A stretch of 63,341 bases of DNA, counting the filler, from Asterionella formosa (lineage: Eukaryota): assembly GCA_002256025.1 (NCBI GenBank). It is 22 parts of 22 records of this genome, joined end to end, with 100 filler letters (N's around TTAATTAATTAA, not from the genome) between each part and the next. Parts side by side here need not be neighbours in the genome. Positions count along the whole stretch, not along the records: positions 8,671 to 11,459 come from NKIB01014826.1; 21 more parts are not named here. The stretch is one strand, 5' to 3'. A program made the translations under genes and the position numbers. The notes beneath the pieces were generated by a model. The model did not search any database and was not told the DNA's origin. It saw nothing but the letters and a program-made list of their open reading frames with translations. This document shows, one piece after another, positions 2,892-57,688 of the stretch (positions are counted from its first letter, which is position 1; each line of letters begins with the position of its first letter).

Positions 2892-5681
2892 GTCAGGTAT
2901 TGTTCCATTGAGAAAGTTACTTGTTACGTGAAGCCGGCGAAGGTCAGTGGCCATTTCGAGACCTTCAATTGATTGCAGGCCAGTCGCCGAAAGTTGCAAC
3001 ACCTGCAGCATTGACAGGACTGAAATTTCCTTTAGATCTAGCGGAACATCGTTACCCGTGAGATCAATAGTTTTCAGGTAAGGAAGTGAGAAAAAAAGCT
3101 TCGAAACATCACTGATTGATGTGGCTTCAAGGTTGTTTTGAGCTAGATTGATTTCGACGACACTGCCGGCGACGTCGCACACAATACCAAACCACTTGCA
3201 AACACTGGTATCTGAAATCCAATTTGTATTATCATTCCAATTGGTCCCGTTGAGTAGCTCGAACAGAGTCATCAAAACCGATTGTTCAAAGCTTGTCGAT
3301 TGTGATACACAATGAGTGCTTCCGAAATAGGGGGCTTCAGCCGTTCCGTTCGGGCATTGCGAACACTTCGCCGATGCACTAACTTGGCGCCCGCTCTTAA
3401 GGGCTGTTGCAGGGGGACAAAGGAGCGCATCACAGCCAAGCGATCCCACATTACCTTCCATCCATCCTGCAATATTGGTGGAGGAATTGCATACTCCAGT
3501 TACATTGGTGATCTTATTTCCAGACAGGTCAATGAAAAGACTGGAGAATTCCACCAGGTTCGAGGGAATTTCACCTTCGAGTTGATTATTTGACAATAAG
3601 ACCTTGATCGACGCATTTCGGGCAACACCCGCAAGAAAGTCGATCGGAATAGTTCCTTGAAATGCATTCCCGCTGAGGTCGAGTTCAGTTAATTCTGTGT
3701 TGTTCTTAAAATTAAAAAGTGGACCTGTCATCTTCTTTGTCCCATCTTGTGCCCCAAGCATTAAACGCTGTAAGTTGACGAGAAAGTCAATTCCAGTGGG
3801 CAGAACGCCGGAGATTTTGTTGCCTTGTAAGTCAAGCTGTATGAGACTAGTCAACAAGGTTAACTCTGTGGGGAGTTGCCCAGTTATGTCATTGTTGGAC
3901 AAAAACAATTTTTGAAGACTTGACATGCCAGATATGGCACTTGGAATGCTTCCTGTAAAAAGGTTGCTTTCGGCATAGATCGTCGTCACGCCTTTAAGAG
4001 AGAAGAATTCGTCCGGAATAGTACTGCGAGAAATGTAAGAGAGTTTGAAAACACAAAGGTTTCAGGCGAAAAAAATTGAATAGACTCACCCTGTCATCTG
4101 GTTGTTAGCGATATGAATTTCGGTTAGCTTCGCGGGAGCTGATCCGATTCCTACAAGTGATTTGATACTGGTGTTTGACATTTCCAGAGTTTGAAGTTTC
4201 GTGGCATTTGCAAAATCAGTAAATGTTAGGTCAACATCGTTGTTGGTAAATCCAAGCAGCCGAATGTATGGCAGCTGGAAGATTTCCGAGGGTATCAGAC
4301 CCTGTAGACCATATCCATTTAGACGCAATTCGCTGACACCGGAATCACCCCATTGGTTTACCTCGCAAATAACACCTTCCCGTTGGCAGATCGGGACCCC
4401 TGGCTCCGTCCAGTTCTTGGACGACTTCCAGTAGGACCCACCTGTTGAAATGTACAGATTGTCCAAAATTTCTTTTTCTTGGTTCATGGTTAAATTCTGA
4501 GCACAAACTGTAGATCCCATGTATTCGTTGCCATTACAAGTTTGACATTTACTGGCTGCGCGAGCACTGGCCCTTCCATAAAGGTTCCAAGTATTGGAAG
4601 GACATAGGATGGCGTTGCAACTCTGGAGCAGTCCCACTTCTCCATTCATCCACATCGACTTCTTGCACAACTCTTGAGCAACCTCAGTGATCTGATTGCC
4701 TTCAAGCTCTATGTCGACATCAAGAAACGCAGCCAACTCAGGCGGGATAATACCAGTGAGTTTATTGAAAGAAAGACCTATCTTCATATGCTGGGATTTG
4801 TTAGCTACACCCTCCAAAAATGTCGCTGGGATGGAACCTGATATTTGATTGGAGTCTATGGAGAACTCAATCAAATTGGTGAACTTGTCAAATGCTGGGA
4901 GAGTACCTTCCAAATTTCCGAAAAATTGATGGACGTGAAACTTCTCTAATTTTACCAAATCACTAACTTGCGTAGGCAAGGTACCAACAAATGCGTTTTC
5001 AGAAATGTCCAGGGTGCGGAGGTTAATCAACAATCCCAATTCAGTGGGGATATTCCCATTTAGGTCATTATTGTAGAGGTTCAGGCTGATTGATGCCTTC
5101 GTGTTAGAAGCACAATCACATAATTTGGGACCGCATCAACGCAATAACTTACTCTGTCAATTTTGTGAGGAGTCCGATTTCGCTTGGGAATGTACCCGTC
5201 ATGTATGTAAAAGGCATTTGCAAACTTTCAAGATTTATCAGACCAAAGATTTCATCCGGAAAAGATTTTATGTCAAGGTCAATTCCTTCCAGTACTAGCT
5301 GCTTCAAACTCAAACCCAATGAAAGTTGGTTTAAATTGCCAAGCTTCGCACCAGCGAAATTGACGTATTCGAGTACTTTGGCATGTGCAATCGAGGAGAA
5401 GCCCGTAATCGAGTTTGGGGCGACAGCATTTCTTGACAGATCCAAGCGCTTGAGTGCAGGCAACTCGAATATCAGGGGTGGAATTTGACCCGTCAAACCA
5501 TTATTGCTCAAATTTATTTCTTCCACGAGATTCTGTGTATTGCATGTGATACCAAACCATTTGCAATAATTTAATGTCGACCCGTCGAGGGCCTCCAGTG
5601 CGGTCACTTGCAGAAGATTATCCAAAACGTCCCACCCAGTCCTATTAGCCCACTCCACCCCTCTTAACTCCACGTAGAGCA
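2892..5681 (-). CDS. Large leucine-rich-repeat protein, internal fragment; exons 5681-5153, 5085-4090, 4023-2892
   Basis: Plant-type LRRs (LxLxxNxLxGxIP), repeated LRRNT caps (CKWFGITC, CKWFGIVC) and Cys-rich linkers (CNAILCP, CDALLCP). GT-AG introns at 5086-5152 and 4024-4089 join the three ORFs in frame. Confidence 0.92.
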
Positions 5682-6546
5682 NNNNNNNNNNNNNNNNNNN
5701 NNNNNNNNNNNNNNNNNNNNNNNNNTTAATTAATTAANNNNNNNNNNNNNNNNNNNNNNNNNNNNNNNNNNNNNNNNNNNNACAAGCCTGACCGAACTGT
5801 TTGCTTCCGATTAAACGCTCAGTGGATCCAAATCGAATTTCTCCTCCCATGTACTATTCTTCCTCGGCTATGATGATACAAACCCCAAATCAAATTTCGC
5901 TTGGCTTCAATATGAACTTGTTGGATTAATTGTAATGATAGATTTTATGCAACAACTCAAAACATAATGCTCCGCCCTCCTTGCTTGTTCATACAAGTGG
6001 ATGAAAATCTTAATATTTTTCGATTTGAACAGTCAGCAGACTCAAACTGACTTTTGCATTCCATTTGAATCATTAGCCTTCTTCATAGCGACCAAATGAC
6101 CTGCTAGCAAATCAAACCAGTATGTTTGTACTTTTTGGACTATTCGGTGCCAAAAAATCTTAGCAGGTCCCAACTGAATATTGATTTCGATCTGAATTGC
6201 ATTTCATTGTCACGATGTGGGATCATATCCAACACCTCGAAATAGCATGATGTTGGTACCTGTCAAGAATATAGTATCAATGGCTATTATAAGTCACGAG
6301 AATTGTGGACTCGATTATAGTCCGATGAATCACATGGAGCATTCCCATGTCAAGAATCTTGCTAATGAGATTGATGTTTCAGATCAATCAGAAGAAGTTT
6401 TGCATCAACGAAAAGGGAACACGAAGAACAGGTTCTCATAGTGTAATGAATGGGATTGAAACTAGTTTTATTAGAGTAAGCTTATTATTTTAAGAAACAG
6501 TGAGAATTTGACAGAGAAAGGTCAAACGCGAAAACTAGACTAGAAG

Positions 6547-6730: not shown

Positions 6731-9396
6731 ACTCCCTGCATTCAATACTTTTGTACAGTGTAAAACGGATGACGGATTCTGATGGTTCATACCGTACTTA
6801 GCTTGAGGTCGGTACGTGATGCATTGGATGTACCGGTACCCTGGTACTGGTACCAGGTACCTGATACGCACCTGACATGGAGCATTGATGTACCGGTAGA
6901 TAAATAGAGAATTATACTGGACGGTAGTTATGACTTACTATGATATTATGGAGTGCTAATACCGGTACGAGGTACCAGGTACCTGGTACCTGATGGATGC
7001 GCATACATACATGTCAGTACGTACTGGTGTGTTGTAGAATCTTGTCAGCATGAACTTTTCTTTGTCCTTGTCATTAAATATTGCGAAACCATCATATGAT
7101 CGGTCTACAGTTTGCCACGGCTCACCTTTGTCATTGCTAGCTACGGATGTGCTCATTTGTATGAGGCGACGATCGATTATCGCAGCAATCAACCGAAGTC
7201 CATGCTGTCTCATCAATCTCTGAAATACTAGCTAGTATGCAGCAAAATTGCAGGTGAACTTTGGATTGTAGTATCTTGTGATAGTTGCATGTTGGTAATG
7301 CGACCACAATTCTAACAGCTCGTTGCATGTGTGAATGTGATTTTAAAATAGAATGTTGATGACTAGATATCATGACAGCCATGAAAATGTTCGTTTGATT
7401 ATGTAGTCGTCTGATTTGTTCTGTTTACCATCCATGCCTAGTATAGAGTCATACGTCTTCGTTTTCGTCGCCAATTCAAGCCCAATTGATTGCCCGCTAT
7501 CATCGATTAGCCGCCCTGTTCTTATTGCTAAAAAAACCCTTCGAACGTGTTCGTCTATTATTCACCGATTTCAAGTTTTTAAACTCTGGCGCATTTTTGA
7601 TCGTTGAATTGAATCAAGCTTTCTGGCTTCTCTATCACCATGTCATGCAAATTTGTCACTGAGGGTCCACCATTTGTTGCAAACTGATAAAGCAGCGGGC
7701 AGTTAAAAATTCACACAAATAGCATGATTCTTTGATGGATTTAAGAGATGATTGAACTCGCTCCATAAGCCTATCATTGAGGCTTCATCAGCGATGCAAG
7801 GAGTGCATGAAGCTAAACTCACAATGTGCAAGATTATTCAAACTAGCTAGCAGTATGGATAAATCTACTACTAAAGATTACAATGTTAACATCGAAACTC
7901 TGATTTTGAAACTTTGATGCTAATGAATTGCTACTAGTAGTTATTGAAATGAACAAAGGAATTAATTTGGTTCAAGCAGTCAACCGAAGAATCAGGCCAC
8001 GATTGTTGAATGTTGTCAACAATTTTCAACAGAACAAGTAGTACTTACACTACTAATAGCTAGCTATTCATTTCATCTACATTCTATCATTTGGTTGAGG
8101 TTGAAATGAAGTGATAGTGAGTCGTAATTTACATATTGTGTGTATACTATAGTTACAATATTTTTTGTCATCTGCTCCGCCCTGCAACGTATTATCAGTA
8201 CTTTCTGTATTAGGTATGGATGGGTGTGGTCCGCCCGAGGTAGAAGTCGTTCTCGTGTGTGCATTTTGTACCGACCATTTTTTAGGTGTCGGTTTGACCT
8301 AAAATTCAGGGTGTGAACAAGAAGGCTAGCAACAATAGGTGTAAGTACTAGTACTGCAAGAGGTAAGGTCTAAGTGAGGAGATCTACCCAGACGCGGGAA
8401 GGAGTACGAAGCTTCTAACAGGTACCCTGGTACCAGTACAAACCGAGTGAACCGTACAAATTCATGCACGATTTCATCCATATTCATTTTAAATACCCGG
8501 TATATATTCATTTTGTAAGGCACTGCCCAATTGGCAAACGAACGGATTCTGGATTCCGTCCTGTAATGCCNNNNNNNNNNNNNNNNNNNNNNNNNNNNNN
8601 NNNNNNNNNNNNNNTTAATTAATTAANNNNNNNNNNNNNNNNNNNNNNNNNNNNNNNNNNNNNNNNNNNNTATTTGTAAAATCTTGTGCCACTTAGCATA
8701 CAATACCCTTGATCATATATTCATGATAGTTTTTATTTACAGACGATGTCAATAGTACATGCCAACGAGATCAATTGTTGGGTTCACAAAGACTAAATGA
8801 TTGCCTCCTCCCCTAGCAGGATACCACCAATCTCGACCAAAACATTGAAAATGCTCTTGTTGAATCAATGAACCACTATTAGAAAATCACTGACAAAAGT
8901 TTGTTTTTTAATCTTTCAGTATTTTTTTTAATCAAAGAGTTTTGTTGTAAGATATAAATGAAATTTGTTGAATGGTTTATTGATTTGAACTTATGTGATC
9001 ATTGACTGACACATGATTTTACAGAATTATGCGAAAACTTCATCGATTTCTGGTAAGTGGAGCATGCCAAAATGGTACTGCAGTACAGATTGCGTTATAC
9101 ATGTTTGATTTATATGTGAAGAGTATGTGTTTGATTAGTCTGACTGAATATTATTTTCTTAACCCTACCTCGAGCTAGGGGTTCAAATGCAGCAACCTTA
9201 AATCGAACAAACTCAGGTATGAGCCTAAAATCTATTCTATCAGTCAAAAGAGGTGTAAGGACAATTTTTCTTCACATTAAAATGTAGTTTACTGCACCTC
9301 ATCAGCATAGAATGAGGGCTTTTCAAAACAGATACTGTTGATCATCTGAACAAAAAGGTATTAGCTCCAACAACTGCTTATAAGTCTCATTTATGC

Positions 9397-10504
9397 TCAT
9401 TTACCATTCTTGCTGCCCTTGCCACCCTTGCTTCCCTTGCCATCCTTGCTTCCCTTGCCGGAGGGCTCCAGGTAAGTAGTAGGGCAGATACGTGTTACCA
9501 CACGACCATTGAGAGCTTGAACAGGACGACTGGTAGATCCAGAATCAGAAGCAATGCTGGCTATTTCGCAAGTTGCAGAATCTCTGTACTCCAAGATAAA
9601 ATTACTCAAGCGAGAATATTGTGCAACCGAGATAGACACAGGGGTATCAGCAAGGTTCCACCAAACAACTTCAGAGCAAGGCGGAGTTGTGAGGCCACCA
9701 TCATAATGGTAGAAAGTCGAGCCCTTAGGGACTAGGCTGTAGGCATCAAACTGTTGAAGGCTGCGACGATCGCGTTCTAGCACACGCTTCCCTCCCAAAC
9801 GGGAAGAAGTGGAACAAGTCTGTGTAGTCTGCTTAGCAATGGCAGTCCAGCCCTCCACAAAGTACTCAAAAGACGCATGATTCTCAGGGTTTTTGGCATC
9901 AAGCATCATACCAACAACAGCATATCGATCTCCATCTGTCTGCTTGTGGACGATGTGTAGCTCAGCGCCAAAATATTCACCATCAATAGTGTGTTCAGAG
10001 CTCAAGTGAATGTGGAACTGAAGGGCTTCATAAGTTCCATCCACACCAGGGATTTGAATTGTATCCTTGGTGCAGTCCCCAGAGAATTCAGCCTTGACAC
10101 CACCACTGCTAATGGCGAAAGTCATGTCAGCAATGGTGCAATCTCCATTCTGTTCAAAATGGGAAATAAGGGGTTGAGTTTAGGAAGGTCACTATTGGCA
10201 AATTAAGTAAAGTATGCATCATTCTCTTGTTGGTGGGTTCTTCGTTACCCATCACCATGATAATAGAACTATTGAGTTAACTTACTGTAAAAATGTAATC
10301 AGCTTTCACATCACAAGCAGAAGTCTCGACAGCAATGGGAGAGTTCTTCTTCCCATTGCATGAGTTGTTGTCGATCGGTAGACTTCCCCAGTTGGATGGA
10401 CCATAAGGGCTGTCATGGTGATAGTCATATTGGCCTGATTCTGATCCAAGGATAATAGTAGGTGTGGCAAGAAGGGTAAGGAGAGCGAAGCAAGAAGCGA
10501 ACAT
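9397..10504 (-). CDS. Secreted alpha-carbonic anhydrase with Lys-rich C-terminal tail; exons 10504-10286 and 10149-9397
   Basis: Hydrophobic signal peptide; YGPSNW and NSPI N-terminal motifs; Zn ligands in QFHIH and ELHIVH; GGLTTPPCSE. Phase-0 intron 10150-10285 (GTAAGT...CAG) joins IFT to NGDC. Confidence 0.95.
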
Positions 10505-10826
10505 TTTGTATATGCCGGTATGATGGTTTTGTGCTTTGAAGGTGAAATGTGAGCAGTAGTAATCAACACAAAATGAATCGATAGTCGCTTGTCGATGAGA
10601 TCTGTAGACTTCTACGGCCCATAGAATATGGAGAAGTATTCATTTTCGCAGCATGTCAGTACTGAGAAAATCCCATCTGTTGCTTGCTTTTGATCCCAAA
10701 ATGATATACAGGTATCTATTTATTCGTACTTACATGAAAATACTGTATGACGAGCTTTGAAATTTACTCGGTACCGGTACCTGGTACTCCTGGTACCAGG
10801 TACAGTATGAGTGGCTAATCTTACAT

Positions 10827-14347: not shown

Positions 14348-14883
14348 NNNNNNNNNNNNNNNNNNNNNNNNNNNNNNNNNNNNNNNNNNNNTTAATTAAT
14401 TAANNNNNNNNNNNNNNNNNNNNNNNNNNNNNNNNNNNNNNNNNNNNGCAACATAAGGGATCAAATACCACATAATTGCTCAAGCTGTCCTCATCAGTCA
14501 TGCAACTATTTTACACAAGATTCATCCTTTATTCTACTATATGTATATGAGTTTATGTACAGGTGGCTAATTAATACACTTTTTATACATAAATTCAATT
14601 ATCCCAAAAGCCCTTTCATCACCACTACCGGCATATTACTTAAAATGTGTGTATGATATAATGCATACATACATATATACATTCATGGATACATATATAT
14701 ACATTCATACATGGATGAGGGACAAAAGTTCCGGTGTGACTGAATGAATTTCGGACCTTGCATGTAGAATTGAACGACATGAGGTGGAAGGGAAACTATT
14801 TCCCGTAAAATAGGGAAGGACTCTACCGTACATAGAATTACAAACACGACCACAACAAAGAAAAAGGCGTATTTAAAACACAC

Positions 14884-16275
14884 ATGCGAGAGATTAAACA
14901 GAAATCAAACATGGCGAATATTGCACCTAGATGTACCCAAGGTCCTACTGCTCCAGTGACTCCAATGCCTCAGCAGTCTCCTTCTTTGCCAGCACCACAA
15001 TCTCAGCCTTCAACCCAAATTCCAACCACTTCAATTCCGTCTCCGATTGCTAAAATTCTTTCAAAGATGAGAATGAATGAACGGAATGCTAACATTCAAG
15101 AAGAAGGTCTCATGGAGCTTCGGAACTTGGCTTATAATAATGAAAACAACAAAGTGAAAATTGCTGAAGCAGGAGGTATCACTACGATTCTGTCTGCAAT
15201 GAAGACTCATTCCTCCAATGCTACTGTGCAAGAAAATGGTTGTGGAGCACTACAGAACTTGGCTGTGAATGAAAACAACAGGGTGACGAAAACCGGTCTG
15301 CAGGGTAGCAGTGTAAGTGGGGGTAGAAATATCGATACTGAATTGCAGAAGATTAGACACAAACAACAGCGGTTGCTGTTGTTGCGTCATGCCTCGAAGT
15401 GCCAATATGAAGCCGGAAAGTGTCCAGTCACTCCACACTGTGCTAGTATGAAAACGCTATGGGAGCACATTGCACACTGTAAAGATCAACAATGCACTGT
15501 TGACTATTGCATGAGCAGTCGATATGTACTCAGTCATTATCGGCGATGTAAAGATGCACGCTGTCCAGCATGTGGTCCCGTTCGAGAAACAATTCGAAAA
15601 AGCCAAGAAAAGGAGTCAAGTCGCGACGGTCAAAATGGCGGTACATCATTTCAGTCTTCAGGTGTGGACCCCTTTGCTGCCATGTCCGATATGACGGATG
15701 ACCCTACTATTCTGCTATCGAGCTCTGGTGCTTCACCTGATCTCCAGCCTGAACTGAAAAAAGCCAAGATAGAAATCAGCCCTTCAATCTCAAATCAATT
15801 TGACGCGCCACCAGCACCTAGTAACATCACGTCTTCTGCTCCCTTAAGTACTAGTAGCATTGGGATGTCAAGCTACGACCAGCAAATAGCTGCAGCAGGA
15901 GGTATCACTACGATTCTGTCTGCAATGAAGACTCATTCCTCCAATGCTACTGTGCAAGAAAAAGGTTGTGCAGCACTTAGGAACTTGGCTGTGAATGGCA
16001 ACAACAAGGTGACGATTGCTGATGCAGGAGGTATCATTACGATTCTGTCTGCAATGAAGACTCATTCCTCCAATGCTACTGTGCAAGAGCATGGTTGTGC
16101 AGCACTGCAAACCTTGGCTGTGAATGAAAACAACAGAGTGAAGATATCCAATGCTGGTGGAAAAGCCCTAATTGAGTCTGCTATGCGAAATTAGACATCC
16201 AATGCTGGTGTTCAAGAAAATGGTAATGGAGCACTTCGCAATTTGACTCTCCGTGGGAAATGGTCATTATGGTAA
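14884..16275 (+). CDS. Armadillo-repeat protein with an in-frame TAZ zinc-finger insert; TAG at 16192-16194 interrupts the last repeat and the frame continues to 16275
   Basis: Near-identical ARM repeats (IAxAGGITTILSAMKTHSSNATVQExGCxALxNLA). TAZ signature LLLLRHASKC-CPVTPHC-HIAHC-C-C-HYRRC-CPAC. Confidence 0.88.
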
Positions 16276-38185: not shown

Positions 38186-39481
38186 ATGTCTCCTGCTGAT
38201 CCTATCGCCTTCGACCCTCCTCAGATCCTTAATGCCAAGCGTGTAACAGGGCTTGTGGTAGTTCCAGAGTACGAGAAGTCAGAGTTGAAAGCAAACCCGT
38301 TGGACTTATCATGGAACGCAATGGCACCTGAGCATCTCGAGTCAGGATCAGATCCGCCCACACTCAAACGCCGAAGCTCACTAGCAGGAAACATTCTTCT
38401 CGTGGAGCACCCAGAAGGTCAGAAAGCGTTCTTCCTTCAAAGGAAGATGGCCAAGACGAGTCACGGATGTCTCCGAGTTGGTTTCTTGTGTGAGCAGAAA
38501 ATTGGAGGTATGGAATGGAATGTCATTAAGTCGGATGGGCCGCATCCATTTGAAATGGCAACCATAAAGATTGAATCCAAGGATAAGGTCCTAGTAAATG
38601 ACACAGGAAAAGATACATTTACCAAGGATCCGACTGTTGAATTAAGTGCTTTGCAGATGATTGCAGCATATGATCCACGAGGAGAGGGCGGTGTGATTGG
38701 AAGCTCCTGTATCTGTGCGGATCATACACATGTTTTCAGTGTTCTTCCATTCCATGGTGAAGGAACTTTATTTCAGCATGTTGTGGAATCTGGGCGCCTG
38801 GAGGAGCGAATGGCTCAACACTTCTTCCAACAAATTTTAAAGGTAGGTGTATTGTTTTCTTTTTGTCAGGTGATCAATTCCAAACTGACATCATGTCTTC
38901 TTTTCATTTCGGAAAAATAGGGCTTGAAAACAATGAAAGAAGTTGAAATTTGTCATCGCAGACTGTCGCTGGAGAGTGTTTTGCTACGGGGTTCAACTTG
39001 TATCCTTGCCGACCTTGGGTCGGCACTGAGAATACCGCATGATTGCAGCTTGCTTCAACCACATACTGCATTTGGCGTCGGGTACCCAGGATACTTGGCA
39101 CCGGAAATCGTCAAAGGCGAACTTTTTGATGGGTACGCAACTGATCTTTGGGCAGCTGGTGTCATGCTGTTTGGTATGTTGTTTGGCACAGAAGCACCAT
39201 TTGTGTGGGCGACACCAGATGACCATAGGTTCAAGGAAATTTGTTTAATGGGACATCTGAAGATTATGTCCTCGAAGTGGGAAATAGAAAATCCGCAAAA
39301 ACGAGCCAAATTAGAGCCTCACAAGCCTGTGAGTAATAGTGCTATTGACTTACTTCAAAATATGTTGTGGGCAGACCCAAATGCTCGATTGACGTTAACC
39401 GAGGTCATGGCACATGTTTGGGTTACCAACCAGGATGAGCATCATGCAATATCAACTGTGACATCAAAATTGGCTGAATAG
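38186..39481 (+). CDS. CAMK-like Ser/Thr kinase-fold protein, probably a pseudokinase; intron 38843-38920
   Basis: ATIK, DLG, YLAPE, DLWAAGV and RLTL motifs; phase-0 GT-AG intron; catalytic loop reads HRRLSLES. Start codon inferred. Confidence 0.88.
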
Positions 39482-41582: not shown

Positions 41583-43191
41583 CTAATCCCATAAACTTGG
41601 TGAAGTGATTGGACCACTTCTTCTGCTATATGACGGTGGGCCTGCCTGAGGGGAAGTGACTGGAGATAAAGGTACAACATCATTGGCAACATTGTAACCC
41701 TTGCCACCAGAGGGGCCTTGATCCCCCTGAGTGCTGCTACGAGCGCCCTTGCCACCCTTACCCCCAGAGGGGCCGTAATCCCCATGAGTGCTGCTAGAGG
41801 AACCCTTGCCACCCTTACCCCCAGAGGGGCCTTGATCCCCAGGAGTGCTGCTAGGGGAGCCCTTGCCACCCTTACCCCCAGAGGGGCCTTGATCCCCAGG
41901 AGTGCTGCTAGAGGAACCCTTGCCACCCTTACTACTAGAGGGGCCTTGATCACCTGGAGTGCTGCTAGGGGAGCCTTTACCACCCTTACTTCCAGAAGGT
42001 CCTTGATCGCCAGGAGTGCAGCTAGGAGAGCCTTTACCACCCTTACTACAAGAGGGACCTTGATCCCCAGGAGTGCTGCTAGGAGTGCCTTTACCACCCT
42101 TACTACCAGAGGGACCTTGGTCTCCAGGAGTGCTGCTAGGAGTGCCTTTACCGCCCTTACTTCCAGAAGGTCCTTGATCCCCAGGTGTCCCAGTAGGAGA
42201 ACCATTGGAACCTTTACCGCCCTTGCCACCTTTGCTGCCCTTGCCGCCTTTGCTGCCCTTGCCGCCTTTGCCGCCCTTGCCGCCTTTGCTGCCCTTGCCG
42301 CCTTTGCTGCCCTTTCCGCCTTTACTGCCTTTACTAGAAGGGGCACCTGGATCAAAGGGAACTGGTGCAGCACTTGAAATTCCTGGTGGTGCAACAAGAA
42401 TTGGTGACAAGGTTGGAACAACAACAGGAACAGGTGCTGGGGTTGGAGCTACAAACGGAACTGGAGCAGCTGTTGGAGAACCAACAGGGACCATAGCTGG
42501 ACTGTCGACAGGACTTGGTGGAGGAGTCGAAATTCCTGGTGGTGAGGCAAGGAGTGGTGCTGGAGTTGGAACAAGAACAGGAACTGGTGCTGGAGTCGGA
42601 GTAAGAACAGGAACTGGTGCTGGGGTGGGAATAAGAACAGGAACTGGAGTTGGAACAATAACAGGGACTGGTGCCGGAGTAGAAGAATATACTGGGCTAA
42701 AAGCTGGACTGTCGACAGGAATTGGTGGAGGAGTCGAAATTCCTGGTGGTGAGGCAAGAAGCGGTGCTGGGGTTGGAACAATAACAGGAACTGGTGCTGG
42801 AGTTGGAACAACAACAGGAACTGGTGCTGGAGTTGGAACAATAACAGGAACTGGTGCCGGAGTAGAAGAATACACAGGGCTCATAGCTGGACTGTCGACA
42901 ATCGGTGGAGGAGTCGAAATTCCTGGTGGTGAGGCAAGAAGCGGTGCTGGGGTTGGAACAACAACAGGAACTGGTGCTGGAGTTGGTACAACAACAGGAA
43001 CTGGCGCTGGAGTTGGAACAACAACAGGAACTGGCGCTGGAGTTGGTACATTAACAGGAACTGGCGCTGGAGTCGGTACAGTAACAGGAACTGGCGCTGG
43101 TGCCGACGTTGGCATAACAACAGGGGTCGGTGCAGGAGTTTTAGGTTTGAAACGATCACAGACGTAATTTCCGTTTTTGCAGACACAGGTC
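41583..43191 (-). CDS. Pro/Thr/Val-rich and Lys/Gly/Ser-rich repetitive protein (silaffin/cell-wall-like), 5' truncated
   Basis: Frame is open to the contig edge (TCVCKNGNYVC). PTPAPVPVVV repeats, a block of 14 Lys at 3-residue spacing, and eight 19-aa GDQGPSGxKGGKGxPSSTP repeats. Confidence 0.85.
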
Positions 43192-43337
43192 NNNNNNNNN
43201 NNNNNNNNNNNNNNNNNNNNNNNNNNNNNNNNNNNTTAATTAATTAANNNNNNNNNNNNNNNNNNNNNNNNNNNNNNNNNNNNNNNNNNNNAATATACAA
43301 TTATTTGCAGAGTCATCGTTGAGACACTATAGTAATC

Positions 43338-56055: not shown

Positions 56056-57111
56056 TTAGGGATTACTGACACGAGTAAGCATTTTAGTACGATCAGTTGC
56101 TGGAATGGGAATAAAACCAGCAGTAGTCACGTCGGCAGTACCCTTGGTAGACATGCCGTACTGAATGTATGCCTTGGTTCTGGTGAGAGTAGTGGTTTTG
56201 ACATTCATAAAGATACGGCGGGAAAGAGGGTTGTAAGTGCCGTTCTGGATGGTCGTAGAGGTTGGAAGGACGAAGCTGCCAGCGCTATTCTTGATGGCAG
56301 CAGCATTGACAACGCTTCTGTTCTTGTTGTATTGTAAACCATATCCAACAAAGGCAACAGACGATGCAGTACTCTTGATGTAGGTAATAACGTTTGCTTC
56401 GACGGCAAAGGCTTTGTAACGGGAACTGGCGATTCCCTCACCATTTTTGCTGTCCGTCAAAATTGCATCAATGAAGTTCGTGTAGGAAGCAAGGGTGCTG
56501 TCCGTACCAGAAAGCTTGATCTCGGTTTTAGGGCATTTGGTACTGAGCTCACTCCAGAGGTGGGTGGAATCGTTTCCATCACTGTTTGGAAGGGAAGCGG
56601 CGTTCCAGCCGGTAGCCTTGAGCTTGGAGACGGTGTAGTTGGAGAAAATCCAACGGAGCTGATGGTTGGTCAACCCCCCGAGTGCTTTGATACAGAGGTC
56701 CTCAGCACCATTCAACTTGGTAACCACGGCAAGAGCATCAATAGCAACATCAACCTGAACAACTGAGGGCTGGGTTCCAATTAGGCACGTGTATGTGTAC
56801 CCATTGGTGCCAACTTTAGCCTCGGTAGACTTCCAGCCACGTGCCAAGTTGCCAATATCGACGGCAGATCCTTTGGTTGTGTCACCACACACACGTAATG
56901 CTCCGGTGGAGGATCCACCTCCCTCAACAGTAACCGCGCGGTTACACTGTGCCTTGTACGCCGCGGCCCAGAGGGTAGCAATAGGTTGCACATTGACAGA
57001 ACCAGCAAGGGAGATGGTGCCAGTTGCACCACAGGTGGTGGCCTGAGCAGAAATAAGTGGGACCTCCACCATCATGGCAGAAAGGAGGATGAAAAAGCGA
57101 TTGAAAATCAT
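56056..57111 (-). CDS. Secreted PstS-like (type 2 periplasmic-binding fold) protein, intronless
   Basis: Signal peptide; ISLAGS, VEGGGSSTG, VDIG, VAIDALAVV, LRWIFS and YNPLSRRIFMNV match phosphate-binding-protein motifs. Confidence 0.88.
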   Translation of the reverse strand: MIFNRFFILLSAMMVEVPLISAQATTCGATGTISLAGSVNVQPIATLWAAAYKAQCNRAVTVEGGGSSTGALRVCGDTTKGSAVDIGNLARGWKSTEAKVGTNGYTYTCLIGTQPSVVQVDVAIDALAVVTKLNGAEDLCIKALGGLTNHQLRWIFSNYTVSKLKATGWNAASLPNSDGNDSTHLWSELSTKCPKTEIKLSGTDSTLASYTNFIDAILTDSKNGEGIASSRYKAFAVEANVITYIKSTASSVAFVGYGLQYNKNRSVVNAAAIKNSAGSFVLPTSTTIQNGTYNPLSRRIFMNVKTTTLTRTKAYIQYGMSTKGTADVTTAGFIPIPATDRTKMLTRVSNP

Positions 57112-57688
57112 GCTGGGATGATGGCGGGGCTGGTACTGAGGAAGAGGAAGAGGAATGGGCAGTTATGTCCAGAGGCGGATTTGGAAAATATGAGACGAAA
57201 AGATTCAGAGCCCTATTGAGATGTAGTATTGAGTATTAACAGTATTTAGTCTCTAATGCCCGATGTTAGTAGCTACCTGACCTGGTAACCATGTACTCTC
57301 CTACCTGGTACCAGTACCAGGTAGTTTTTATTACCTGATACTCCATACATGTAAAGGTAGTAGTTACCACTAAGATAGGTGGGTACCGGTACCTGGTGAA
57401 CCTGGTGAACCTGGTACCAGGTACTATCTAACGGTATACCACTTCACCATATAGAATAGAGATTCAATGCTGTGTTGGTGGTAATTTGAAAGAAAGTTCA
57501 TCCGTCTTGATTTAAAAGTGCACGTCTCGACAATGCTGTAGTGGTCGCCGTAAAATATTACAAGGGATCGAAGTTGTTGTACAGCCACNNNNNNNNNNNN
57601 NNNNNNNNNNNNNNNNNNNNNNNNNNNNNNNNTTAATTAATTAANNNNNNNNNNNNNNNNNNNNNNNNNNNNNNNNNNNNNNNNNNNN

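Follow-up and report, generated by a model that had tools for sequence, protein, structure and literature searches.

A lysine-tailed alpha-carbonic anhydrase of Asterionella formosa as a candidate for retention at the diatom cell wall

In the 63,341-nucleotide stretch of Asterionella formosa DNA analyzed here (assembly GCA_002256025.1; referred to below as the window), a two-exon gene on the minus strand encodes a 323-amino-acid protein of the alpha-carbonic anhydrase family, the C-terminus of which is a 22-residue tail with lysine at every third position. The gene is real, spliced and expressed with the tail. We hold with moderate confidence that its product is an external carbonic anhydrase (CA) retained at the negatively charged wall by the polycationic, cingulin- or silaffin-like lysine tail, which would have replaced an anchor similar to glycosylphosphatidylinositol (GPI). 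In the proposed mechanism an alpha-CA of the active type would enter the secretory pathway and work outside the plasma membrane; the disordered Lys/Gly/Ser tail would hold the enzyme at the wall (silica and/or the acidic organic casing); and the tail would stand in for the GPI-signal-like hydrophobic C-terminus of most relatives, one retention device being swapped for another. We infer that the tail binds the wall and that the enzyme plays a role in inorganic-carbon acquisition, possibly in physical coupling with silica and with the idea of silica as a proton buffer. The protein is not itself a silaffin, though the lysines of its tail may act as the clusters of silaffins and cingulins do. How external CA stays at the diatom surface, and whether the silica wall aids CA by buffering protons, are unsettled questions, and the gene provides a testable handle on them, being an expressed alpha-CA whose sole unusual part is the lysine tail in a family with otherwise anchor-like tails.

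The features of the gene are collected in Table 1. The exon junction (...ADYIFT/NGDCTIAD...) and the N-terminus are identical in P0003, a 323-residue homologue with 93% identity over exon 2 and an identical tail. Among the public runs listed (24, from 13 studies, mostly labelled freshwater metagenome), 20 contain this part of the DNA, and six are RNA runs. RNA contigs of four RNA runs (X1, X10, X18 and X19) were compared with positions 9100..10700. A joint from 10149 to 10286, which skips exactly 136 nt (CT..AC on the plus strand), was present in three of the four runs (X1, X10 and X19), and the X18 contig ends at 10094, short of the splice junction. X1 record 2 (9267..10149) and record 20 of X18, a poly(A) run (9254..10094), do not differ from the window at any position and extend from the CA domain past tail and stop codon into some 130-140 nt of the 3′ untranslated region (3′UTR); exon 1 lies within the part covered by X19 record 22 (10286..10555). 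Since zero-difference RNA contigs run through the tail, the stop codon and the 3′UTR, the tail is part of the mature mRNA. A preliminary description of this DNA had named splicing or termination ahead of the tail as the outcome that would speak against its proposal; the contigs are unbroken through both tail and stop. The X1 contigs crossing the intron have a depth of 10-29 versus 691 and correspond to unspliced RNA or DNA. Contig depths (691 in X1, 624 in X18) are no ranking of expression, and the transcript ends are not fixed by the contigs. Scans for tRNA and Rfam families around the gene gave no match.

Table 1 Features of the alpha-CA gene and the second lysine run of the window
Feature	Position in window	Strand	Remarks
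Exon 1	10286..10504	-	73 amino acids, begins MFASCFALLTLLATPTIILG; start codon, signal-like N-terminus, start of CA domain
Exon 1, N-terminus and beginning of CA domain	10286..10504	-	YDYHHDSPYGPSNW...NSCNGKKNSPIAV
Hydrophobic, signal-peptide-like N-terminus	10445..10504	-	approximately residues 1-20, by hydropathy
Intron	10150..10285	-	136 nt, GTAAGT...AACAG, phase 0; from sequence and RNA contig joints
Exon 2	9397..10149	-	250 amino acids and TGA; most of CA domain, RxL loop, Lys tail
Zn-binding His triad block	9955..10014	-	QFHIHLSSEHTIDGEYFGAELH; H119, H121, H138; invariant alignment columns
RVLERDRRSLQ loop	9754..9786	-	two RxL motifs (RVL, RSL); variable, low-confidence surface loop
C-terminal tail	9400..9465	-	PSGKGSKDGKGSKGGKGSKNGK; 7 Lys, period 3; predicted disordered
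18-nt tandem repeat coding for the tail	9409..9459	-	2.8 copies; unit G-G-K-G-S-K
3′UTR	9254..9396	-	RNA contigs stop at 9254 and 9267; true end not fixed by contigs
Second K-x-x-K run, 14 Lys	42213..42332	-	inside repeat protein 41583..43115(-); not part of the CA gene

The protein is a member of the alpha-CA family and, as judged from conserved residues, has the full catalytic set. Exon 2 matched Pfam PF00194 (E 6.5e-30, 105 bits with a cutoff of 27) and 240 distinct PDB sequences (E<=0.001), the 60 shown being all named carbonic anhydrase or carbonate dehydratase. The zinc triad QFHIH...AELHIVH (H119, H121 and H138 in the numbering of the 323-residue protein), reported as intact in the preliminary description, is invariant in an alignment of 29 sequences (A1) and aligns with FHFH...H of the solved alpha-CAs; we take it to be His94/96/119 of human CA II. 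In the gate (SEH and LTTPP blocks) T227 is invariant in A1, and E125 and T228 are near-invariant, E125 and T227 presumably corresponding to the Glu106/Thr199 gate. Among the cysteines in A1, C231 and C295 are invariant and C99, C185 and C267 near-invariant, and the Cys of NSCNGKKNSPI aligns with a conserved Cys of bacterial alpha-CAs. In phmmer alignments the NNGH block of bacterial alpha-CAs, the His of which we take to be at the proton-shuttle position His64, is aligned with SSGG, and the strand here contains no His. Shuttle His64 is a feature of high-activity isozymes, not a defining trait of the alpha-CA family overall.

An AlphaFold2 model of P0003 (93% identical to the window protein), built from A1, had a mean predicted local distance difference test (pLDDT) value of 84 and a predicted template modelling (pTM) score of 0.78. 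Its listed Foldseek matches in PDB were all alpha-CAs or proteins of the CA fold (best E 5.8e-20; target-normalised TM 0.68-0.84), and a search of the ESM Atlas returned generic CA clusters only. The low-confidence parts of the model are residues 1-22 (signal), 191-200 (RxL loop, mean pLDDT 55) and 300-323 (tail, pLDDT <50).

The translated tail has Lys at its positions 4, 7, 10, 13, 16, 19 and 22, i.e. 7 Lys in 19 amino acids, exactly every third residue as had been noticed earlier. Its segment KGSKDGKGSKGGK contains 5 Lys in 13 residues and thus has the composition of the pentalysine clusters, defined in the excerpts of PMC9650480 as 12-14 residues with 5 Lys. According to the same source the cingulins contain lysine-enriched regions, e.g. 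KSGKGSKSSGKSGK, single ones of which, fused to a signal peptide and eGFP (SP-eGFP), reach the frustule of Thalassiosira pseudonana; the tail resembles these regions in composition (PMC9650480).

The C-termini of the relatives put the tail in context. The homologue search gave 318 sequences at E<=0.001 among 868 candidates, and 120 of these were listed. C-termini were scored after the end-of-domain motif [RHK][IVL]CP, present in 103 of the 120 and missing from 17. Fifty-nine of the 103 end in a hydrophobic stretch and 19 within 12 residues past the motif; five are Lys-rich (at least 20% Lys: P0003, P0042, P0074, P0090 and P0119), four end in D.Y.PY.G[ML], four look like a membrane span with a cytosolic tail, and 12 are of other kinds. 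The uncharged run that closes the hydrophobic ends (n=59) has a median length of 23 residues and measures at least 15 in 57 of them, and three consecutive small residues stand 12-32 residues from the end in 54. This composition points to a GPI-attachment signal. The window protein ends ...GSKNGK and has no such hydrophobic signal, and no relic of a hydrophobic tail was found in any of the three frames of its 3′UTR.

In a quick maximum-likelihood tree (LG+G4) of the CA core with the tails removed (82 rows; 39 of the 120 homologues, with no anchor motif or a core below 170 residues, were left out), the window protein and P0003 have as their sisters P0004 and P0007, both with hydrophobic tails (support 96), so that one surface-retention device has probably been exchanged for another. 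A second Lys-tailed clade is formed by P0074, P0090 and P0119 (support 100), and P0042 stands apart from both. Three changes of the Lys-tail label are required on this tree, at least two of them forced by the starred branches; several long branches, that of P0042 among them, meet there. A HMMER search of 1.84 billion representatives (50% identity) gave 8889 matches at E<=0.001, and the best 150 of these contained further Lys-rich C-termini (P0273, P0325 and, weakly, P0366) as well as Lys-rich insertions in the RxL loop (P0335 and P0376), the one in P0376 being about 170 residues long, Ser/Lys/Tyr-rich and cingulin-like, and ending RGRRIM. By these comparisons of sequences, Lys-rich tails arose at two to three or more separate places on the family tree, and Lys-rich modules are a recurrent, derived alternative to the anchor-like tail in this alpha-CA family.

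The preliminary description had seen in the tail a modular C-terminal address and had noted the string GKGSKGGKGSK also in an unrelated protein of the window. The string is indeed present in the 510-residue repeat protein at 41583..43115(-). In a six-frame scan of the window the only long K-x-x-K runs were the tail, with 7 Lys, and the one in this protein, with 14; one chance match had 4 Lys. The idea of a modular address gains from the family comparison, with its GPI-like tails and recurrent Lys tails, and loses in another respect: the tail DNA and its copy in the repeat gene are identical at 48 of 63 nt only, with a longest common word of 14 nt, so no recent transfer of the module from the gene at about 42.2 kb is supported.

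The repeat protein itself (41583-43191(-), at least 510 residues) has no Pfam match, and its 5′ end runs into the block of Ns at 43192-43291. It is built of PTPAPVPV-type repeats followed by (GKGSKG)n with 14 Lys of period 3 and then by GDQGPSGSKGGKG[TS]PSSTP-type units, and looks like a wall or mucin-like protein.

When metagenome DNA was scanned with the pattern G-K-G-[WSN]-K-G-G-K-G-[WSN]-K, at least 119 stretches were matched, mostly GC-rich short open reading frames (ORFs) of the GKGRK/GKGWK type, the pattern being too permissive in that codons for Arg, Cys, Trp and Thr also satisfy WSN. Twenty ORFs chosen by eye (mostly long and of lower GC, a small and biased sample) were run against Pfam. 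Among these the string was carried by L107, which is the same CA, by L098, which has an EF-hand, by one nucleolar protein (Ebp2) and one with an RRM, and by several Tyr-rich ORFs without a Pfam family (L010, L057 and L106); only L107 and L098 combined a Pfam domain with a C-terminal tail of the same kind. The EF-hand sequence (L098:1-348(+), from a metagenome contig, 116 residues) ends GKGSKGGKGSKGGKGS. Being present in nucleolar and other non-wall proteins, the GKGSK string alone is not diagnostic of silica or wall, and the wall specificity implied earlier for GKGSKGGKGSK has to be given up, the string being found in Ebp2, RRM and EF-hand proteins; its meaning depends on its presence on a secretory protein. 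A search with the tail only (P0003 residues 284-323, E<=10) passed 1 of 289 candidates, the query's own cluster, and is uninformative on other tailed enzymes.

Several features suggest that the protein enters the secretory pathway. The first 20 or so residues, described before as a signal peptide, are hydrophobic, with Kyte-Doolittle values of 1.7-2.3 over 12-residue windows starting at residues 1-9; hydropathy alone was used here. Diatom plastid and periplastid presequences are bipartite, consisting of a signal peptide and a transit-peptide-like stretch. In the window protein, as in the full-length homologues, the conserved CA block YDY...GP.NW begins about 5 residues after the hydrophobic stretch, too short a gap to accommodate a transit-peptide part. 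No KDEL-like end was found at the C-terminus. A di-lysine motif for retrieval to the endoplasmic reticulum (ER) was considered and ruled out by the known rule for such motifs, the protein having no membrane span and its last five residues being S-K-N-G-K. The many conserved cysteines would fit an oxidising secretory or extracellular setting.

The best surviving alternative is that the tail is a neutral low-complexity end produced by microsatellite slippage, with no role as an address, and that the enzyme is a soluble protein either secreted to the periplasm or outside, or kept in the lumen of the ER or chloroplast ER. We consider this somewhat unlikely. The coding sequence of the tail is a tandem repeat with a unit of 18 nt (2.8 copies, 93% matches); the tail is thus a coding minisatellite and not a set of independent chance events, and changes of length by slippage are expected. 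Such changes are found: one RNA contig has a 9-nt insertion in the tail (+GKG), and the 90% cluster of P0003 (19 members, 15 listed, 14 of these with a C-terminus) includes seven variants with 7 Lys, three with 8 Lys (an extra G-G-K) and four with 5 Lys, three of which end ...NGKQRE. The occurrence of the same peptide string in unrelated intracellular proteins also agrees with a neutral origin, as do the 19 of 103 homologues with hardly any residues past the domain (some perhaps truncated predictions) and the alpha-CAs reported from internal secretory-type compartments of Phaeodactylum tricornutum and Nannochloropsis oceanica (excerpts of PMC7215798). Against a neutral tail stand its persistence, the period-3 Lys tail being kept in all 14 listed variants with a C-terminus and lost in none, the recurrence of Lys-rich tails at two to three or more places of the family where relatives have anchor-like tails, and the missing ER-retention motif.

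Retention of the enzyme at the wall by its tail, the interpretation that we prefer, has to be weighed against several observations. The survival of the tail over approximately 7% protein divergence in a slippage-prone minisatellite is weak evidence of selection, and intracellular proteins (Ebp2, RRM, EF-hand) carry GKGSKGGKGSK. Gly at the His64 position may keep turnover modest. No RXL was found behind the signal peptide of the window protein, and its tail is Ser-poor (4 Ser in 22 residues); silaffin targeting reportedly needs phosphoserines in addition to Lys clusters (excerpts of PMC4557024). CinW2 kept its localisation when the lysine-enriched regions were deleted or mutated, and the timing of expression mattered (excerpts of PMC9650480). 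As far as the excerpts of PMC7215798 go, the localised diatom alpha-CAs are all internal, five of P. tricornutum being situated in the four-layered plastid membranes and one of T. pseudonana in the stroma, and for Thalassiosira they name a periplasmic CA of the delta class.

The literature gives some background for the proposal. Current models assume that external CA is confined between membrane and frustule (PMC13326513), and Milligan and Morel are credited with the view that silica buffers diatom CA (PMC3478156). Man-made precedents are CA immobilised in bioinspired silica and enzymes that entrap themselves in silica by means of a fused silaffin R5 peptide (PMC4557024). The excerpts of PMC13326513 and PMC9732472 contain nothing on C-terminal tails of CA. 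No description of a Lys-tailed or frustule-bound alpha-CA was found in a literature search that covers few subscription journals.

The RVLERDRRSLQ segment with its two RxL motifs is present as described earlier, and the label of an insert is fair, since the loop has extra residues in comparison with two bacterial alpha-CAs (alignment gaps). The length of the loop varies among the homologues in A1. Of 106 family members, hydrophobic-tailed ones included, 58 have R.L in the 22-residue stretch that precedes the conserved F..Y block; the background in the same proteins is 114 of 1459 windows of 22 residues. Two R.L motifs are present in 23 of 115 members, mostly 7-13 residues apart and typically as GG[DE]RKL...RR.L; pairs in the loop equivalent to 9754-9800 are found in P0009, P0011, P0013, P0019, P0028, P0040 and others. 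P0003 has RVR in place of RVL, the first of the two motifs. Since RxL is also found in hydrophobic-tailed members, it characterises the family and is not tied to the Lys tail, and the earlier view of it as a silaffin-type addition does not hold. The preliminary interpretation is partly supported: a spliced and expressed alpha-CA of the secretory type with the tail in its mRNA, the pentalysine composition of the tail and the idea of a modular address stand; silaffin-type RxL sites and the specificity of the string do not. According to the excerpts of PMC4557024, RXL is a general endopeptidase site of secreted diatom wall proteins, and the Sil1p repeats end RRIL or RRNL. Cleavage of the loop is therefore possible and may yield a two-chain enzyme, joined by its fold and disulfides; the segment between paired RxL motifs may be an excised linker.

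A stronger claim, that the tail is a true silaffin or cingulin signal which would take the enzyme through the silica deposition vesicle (SDV), with modified lysines, to be embedded in biosilica so that CA lies beside the proposed silica proton buffer, appears quite improbable to us. The tail has the required pentalysine composition (at least 5 Lys within 13 residues) and the likeness to regions such as KSGKGSKSSGKSGK (excerpts of PMC9650480), the loop insertions of P0376 (about 170 residues, cingulin-like) and P0335 (Lys-rich) are in keeping with it, and RRSL/RRNL is similar to the RRIL/RRNL ends of Sil1p repeats (excerpts of PMC4557024); moreover, to an enzyme without a shuttle His an external proton acceptor would matter more. 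The shortage of Ser in the tail speaks against embedding, as does the family-wide RxL loop, which is independent of the type of tail. A weak point on the same side is that the main text, the part covered here, of a preprint on the silica proteome of three species nowhere mentions 'carbonic anhydrase'. A part in silica metabolism, in which a CA-fold enzyme of the wall or SDV would set the pH of deposition or act on silica like the CA-related sponge silicase that dissolves biosilica (excerpts of PMC3820600), is highly improbable: silaffin-like Lys-rich segments do recur in the alpha-CA family, but the full CA catalytic set is present, and most members of this large family have anchor-like tails, as external CAs do.

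New in this work are the way in which tail types are distributed among the relatives, the retention of the tail in variants, RxL as a family feature and the occurrence of GKGSK in non-wall proteins. It seems unlikely that the alpha-CA family as such natively uses silaffin- or cingulin-like Lys modules (the C-terminal tails and the loop insertion of P0376) as biosilica addresses. If it were so, some diatoms would immobilise CA in or on the frustule, the low ionic strength of fresh water would favour electrostatic binding, an enzyme without its own shuttle His would be placed beside silica in the proton-buffering role that Milligan and Morel proposed for it, and a natural counterpart of the engineered fusions of enzymes with silaffin peptides would exist. 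Should the tail of the window protein bind the wall, it would make a natural enzyme with a silica or wall address, a minimal tag to display enzymes on biosilica, and a means of testing the proton-buffer hypothesis by removal of the tail; should it not, the protein would be an ordinary secreted CA with a microsatellite end.

Other forms of C-terminus and domain arrangement were seen in the family. A third C-terminal class comprises P0086, P0094, P0100 and P0122 (also P0064 and P0075), with long, acidic or Gln/Tyr-rich tails ending in conserved D.Y.PY.G[ML] or DEDRYAGM. The giant proteins P0261, P0262, P0265, P0277 and P0352 contain up to 10-11 matches to the CA query in 1841-3007 residues, P0261 having two full CA domains in tandem.

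Beyond the 3′ end of the gene, a segment of about 80 nt (9124-9203) is matched by many otherwise unrelated RNA contigs of X10, with loose ends on both sides and a summed depth of about 4700. It has no tRNA, no Rfam match and no second copy in the window, and may be a dispersed repeat or a conserved element. Paired blocks of 44 Ns occur about every 2.9 kb (21 pairs, e.g. 2792-2891, 5682-5781, 8571-8670 and 43192-43291) and cut some genes; they resemble masked sequence more than gaps of the assembly. Other ORFs of the window with a Pfam match encode a leucine-rich repeat (LRR) protein (4089-5135(-)), a protein with ARM repeats and a TAZ zinc finger (14836-16191(+)), the C-terminal half of a protein kinase domain (38921-39478(+)) and a PBP_like_2 protein (56059-57162(-)); none of the four has an obvious functional link to CA.

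Among known systems the closest are the alpha-CAs of diatoms and other stramenopiles (PF00194), the nearest named relatives being those of Mayamaea pseudoterrestris (47% identity) and Astrosyne radiata (45%). They share with the window protein the fold, the Zn triad, the Thr/Glu gate, the conserved cysteines and a signal-like N-terminus followed directly by the domain. The window protein differs in its Lys/Gly/Ser-rich C-terminus, where 59 of 103 relatives are hydrophobic, and in Gly at the His64 position. Mammalian CA of the CA IV type is a GPI-anchored external alpha-CA. Secretion (predicted for the window protein), a conserved Cys pair and a C-terminal device for staying at the cell surface are what the two would share, and the tails of the window protein's relatives look like GPI signals. 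The window protein itself has no hydrophobic C-terminal signal and would be bound to the wall by charge instead of to the membrane by lipid. CAH1 of Chlamydomonas is cleaved into a large and a small chain, and the paired RxL sites in the loop of the window family could allow a similar cut; we know of no Lys tail in CAH1 or CAH2. Both are periplasmic alpha-CAs (excerpts of PMC7215798), secreted algal enzymes outside the plasma membrane as the window protein is predicted to be, but from another lineage. With the pentalysine clusters and cingulin regions of T. pseudonana the tail has in common K-x-x-K with Gly/Ser spacers and 5 or more Lys in 12-14 residues (excerpts of PMC9650480 and PMC4557024). 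In silaffins and cingulins too the Lys cluster belongs to a protein with a signal peptide, which in the window protein is predicted; here, however, it is found on a globular enzyme, at the extreme C-terminus, is Ser-poor and is accompanied by no RXL site after the signal. In the engineered enzyme-R5 fusions and silica-immobilised CA an enzyme is held in or on silica through a Lys-rich peptide of the silaffin type (excerpts of PMC4557024). Those constructs are man-made, whereas the window enzyme, given the predicted binding, would be their natural counterpart.

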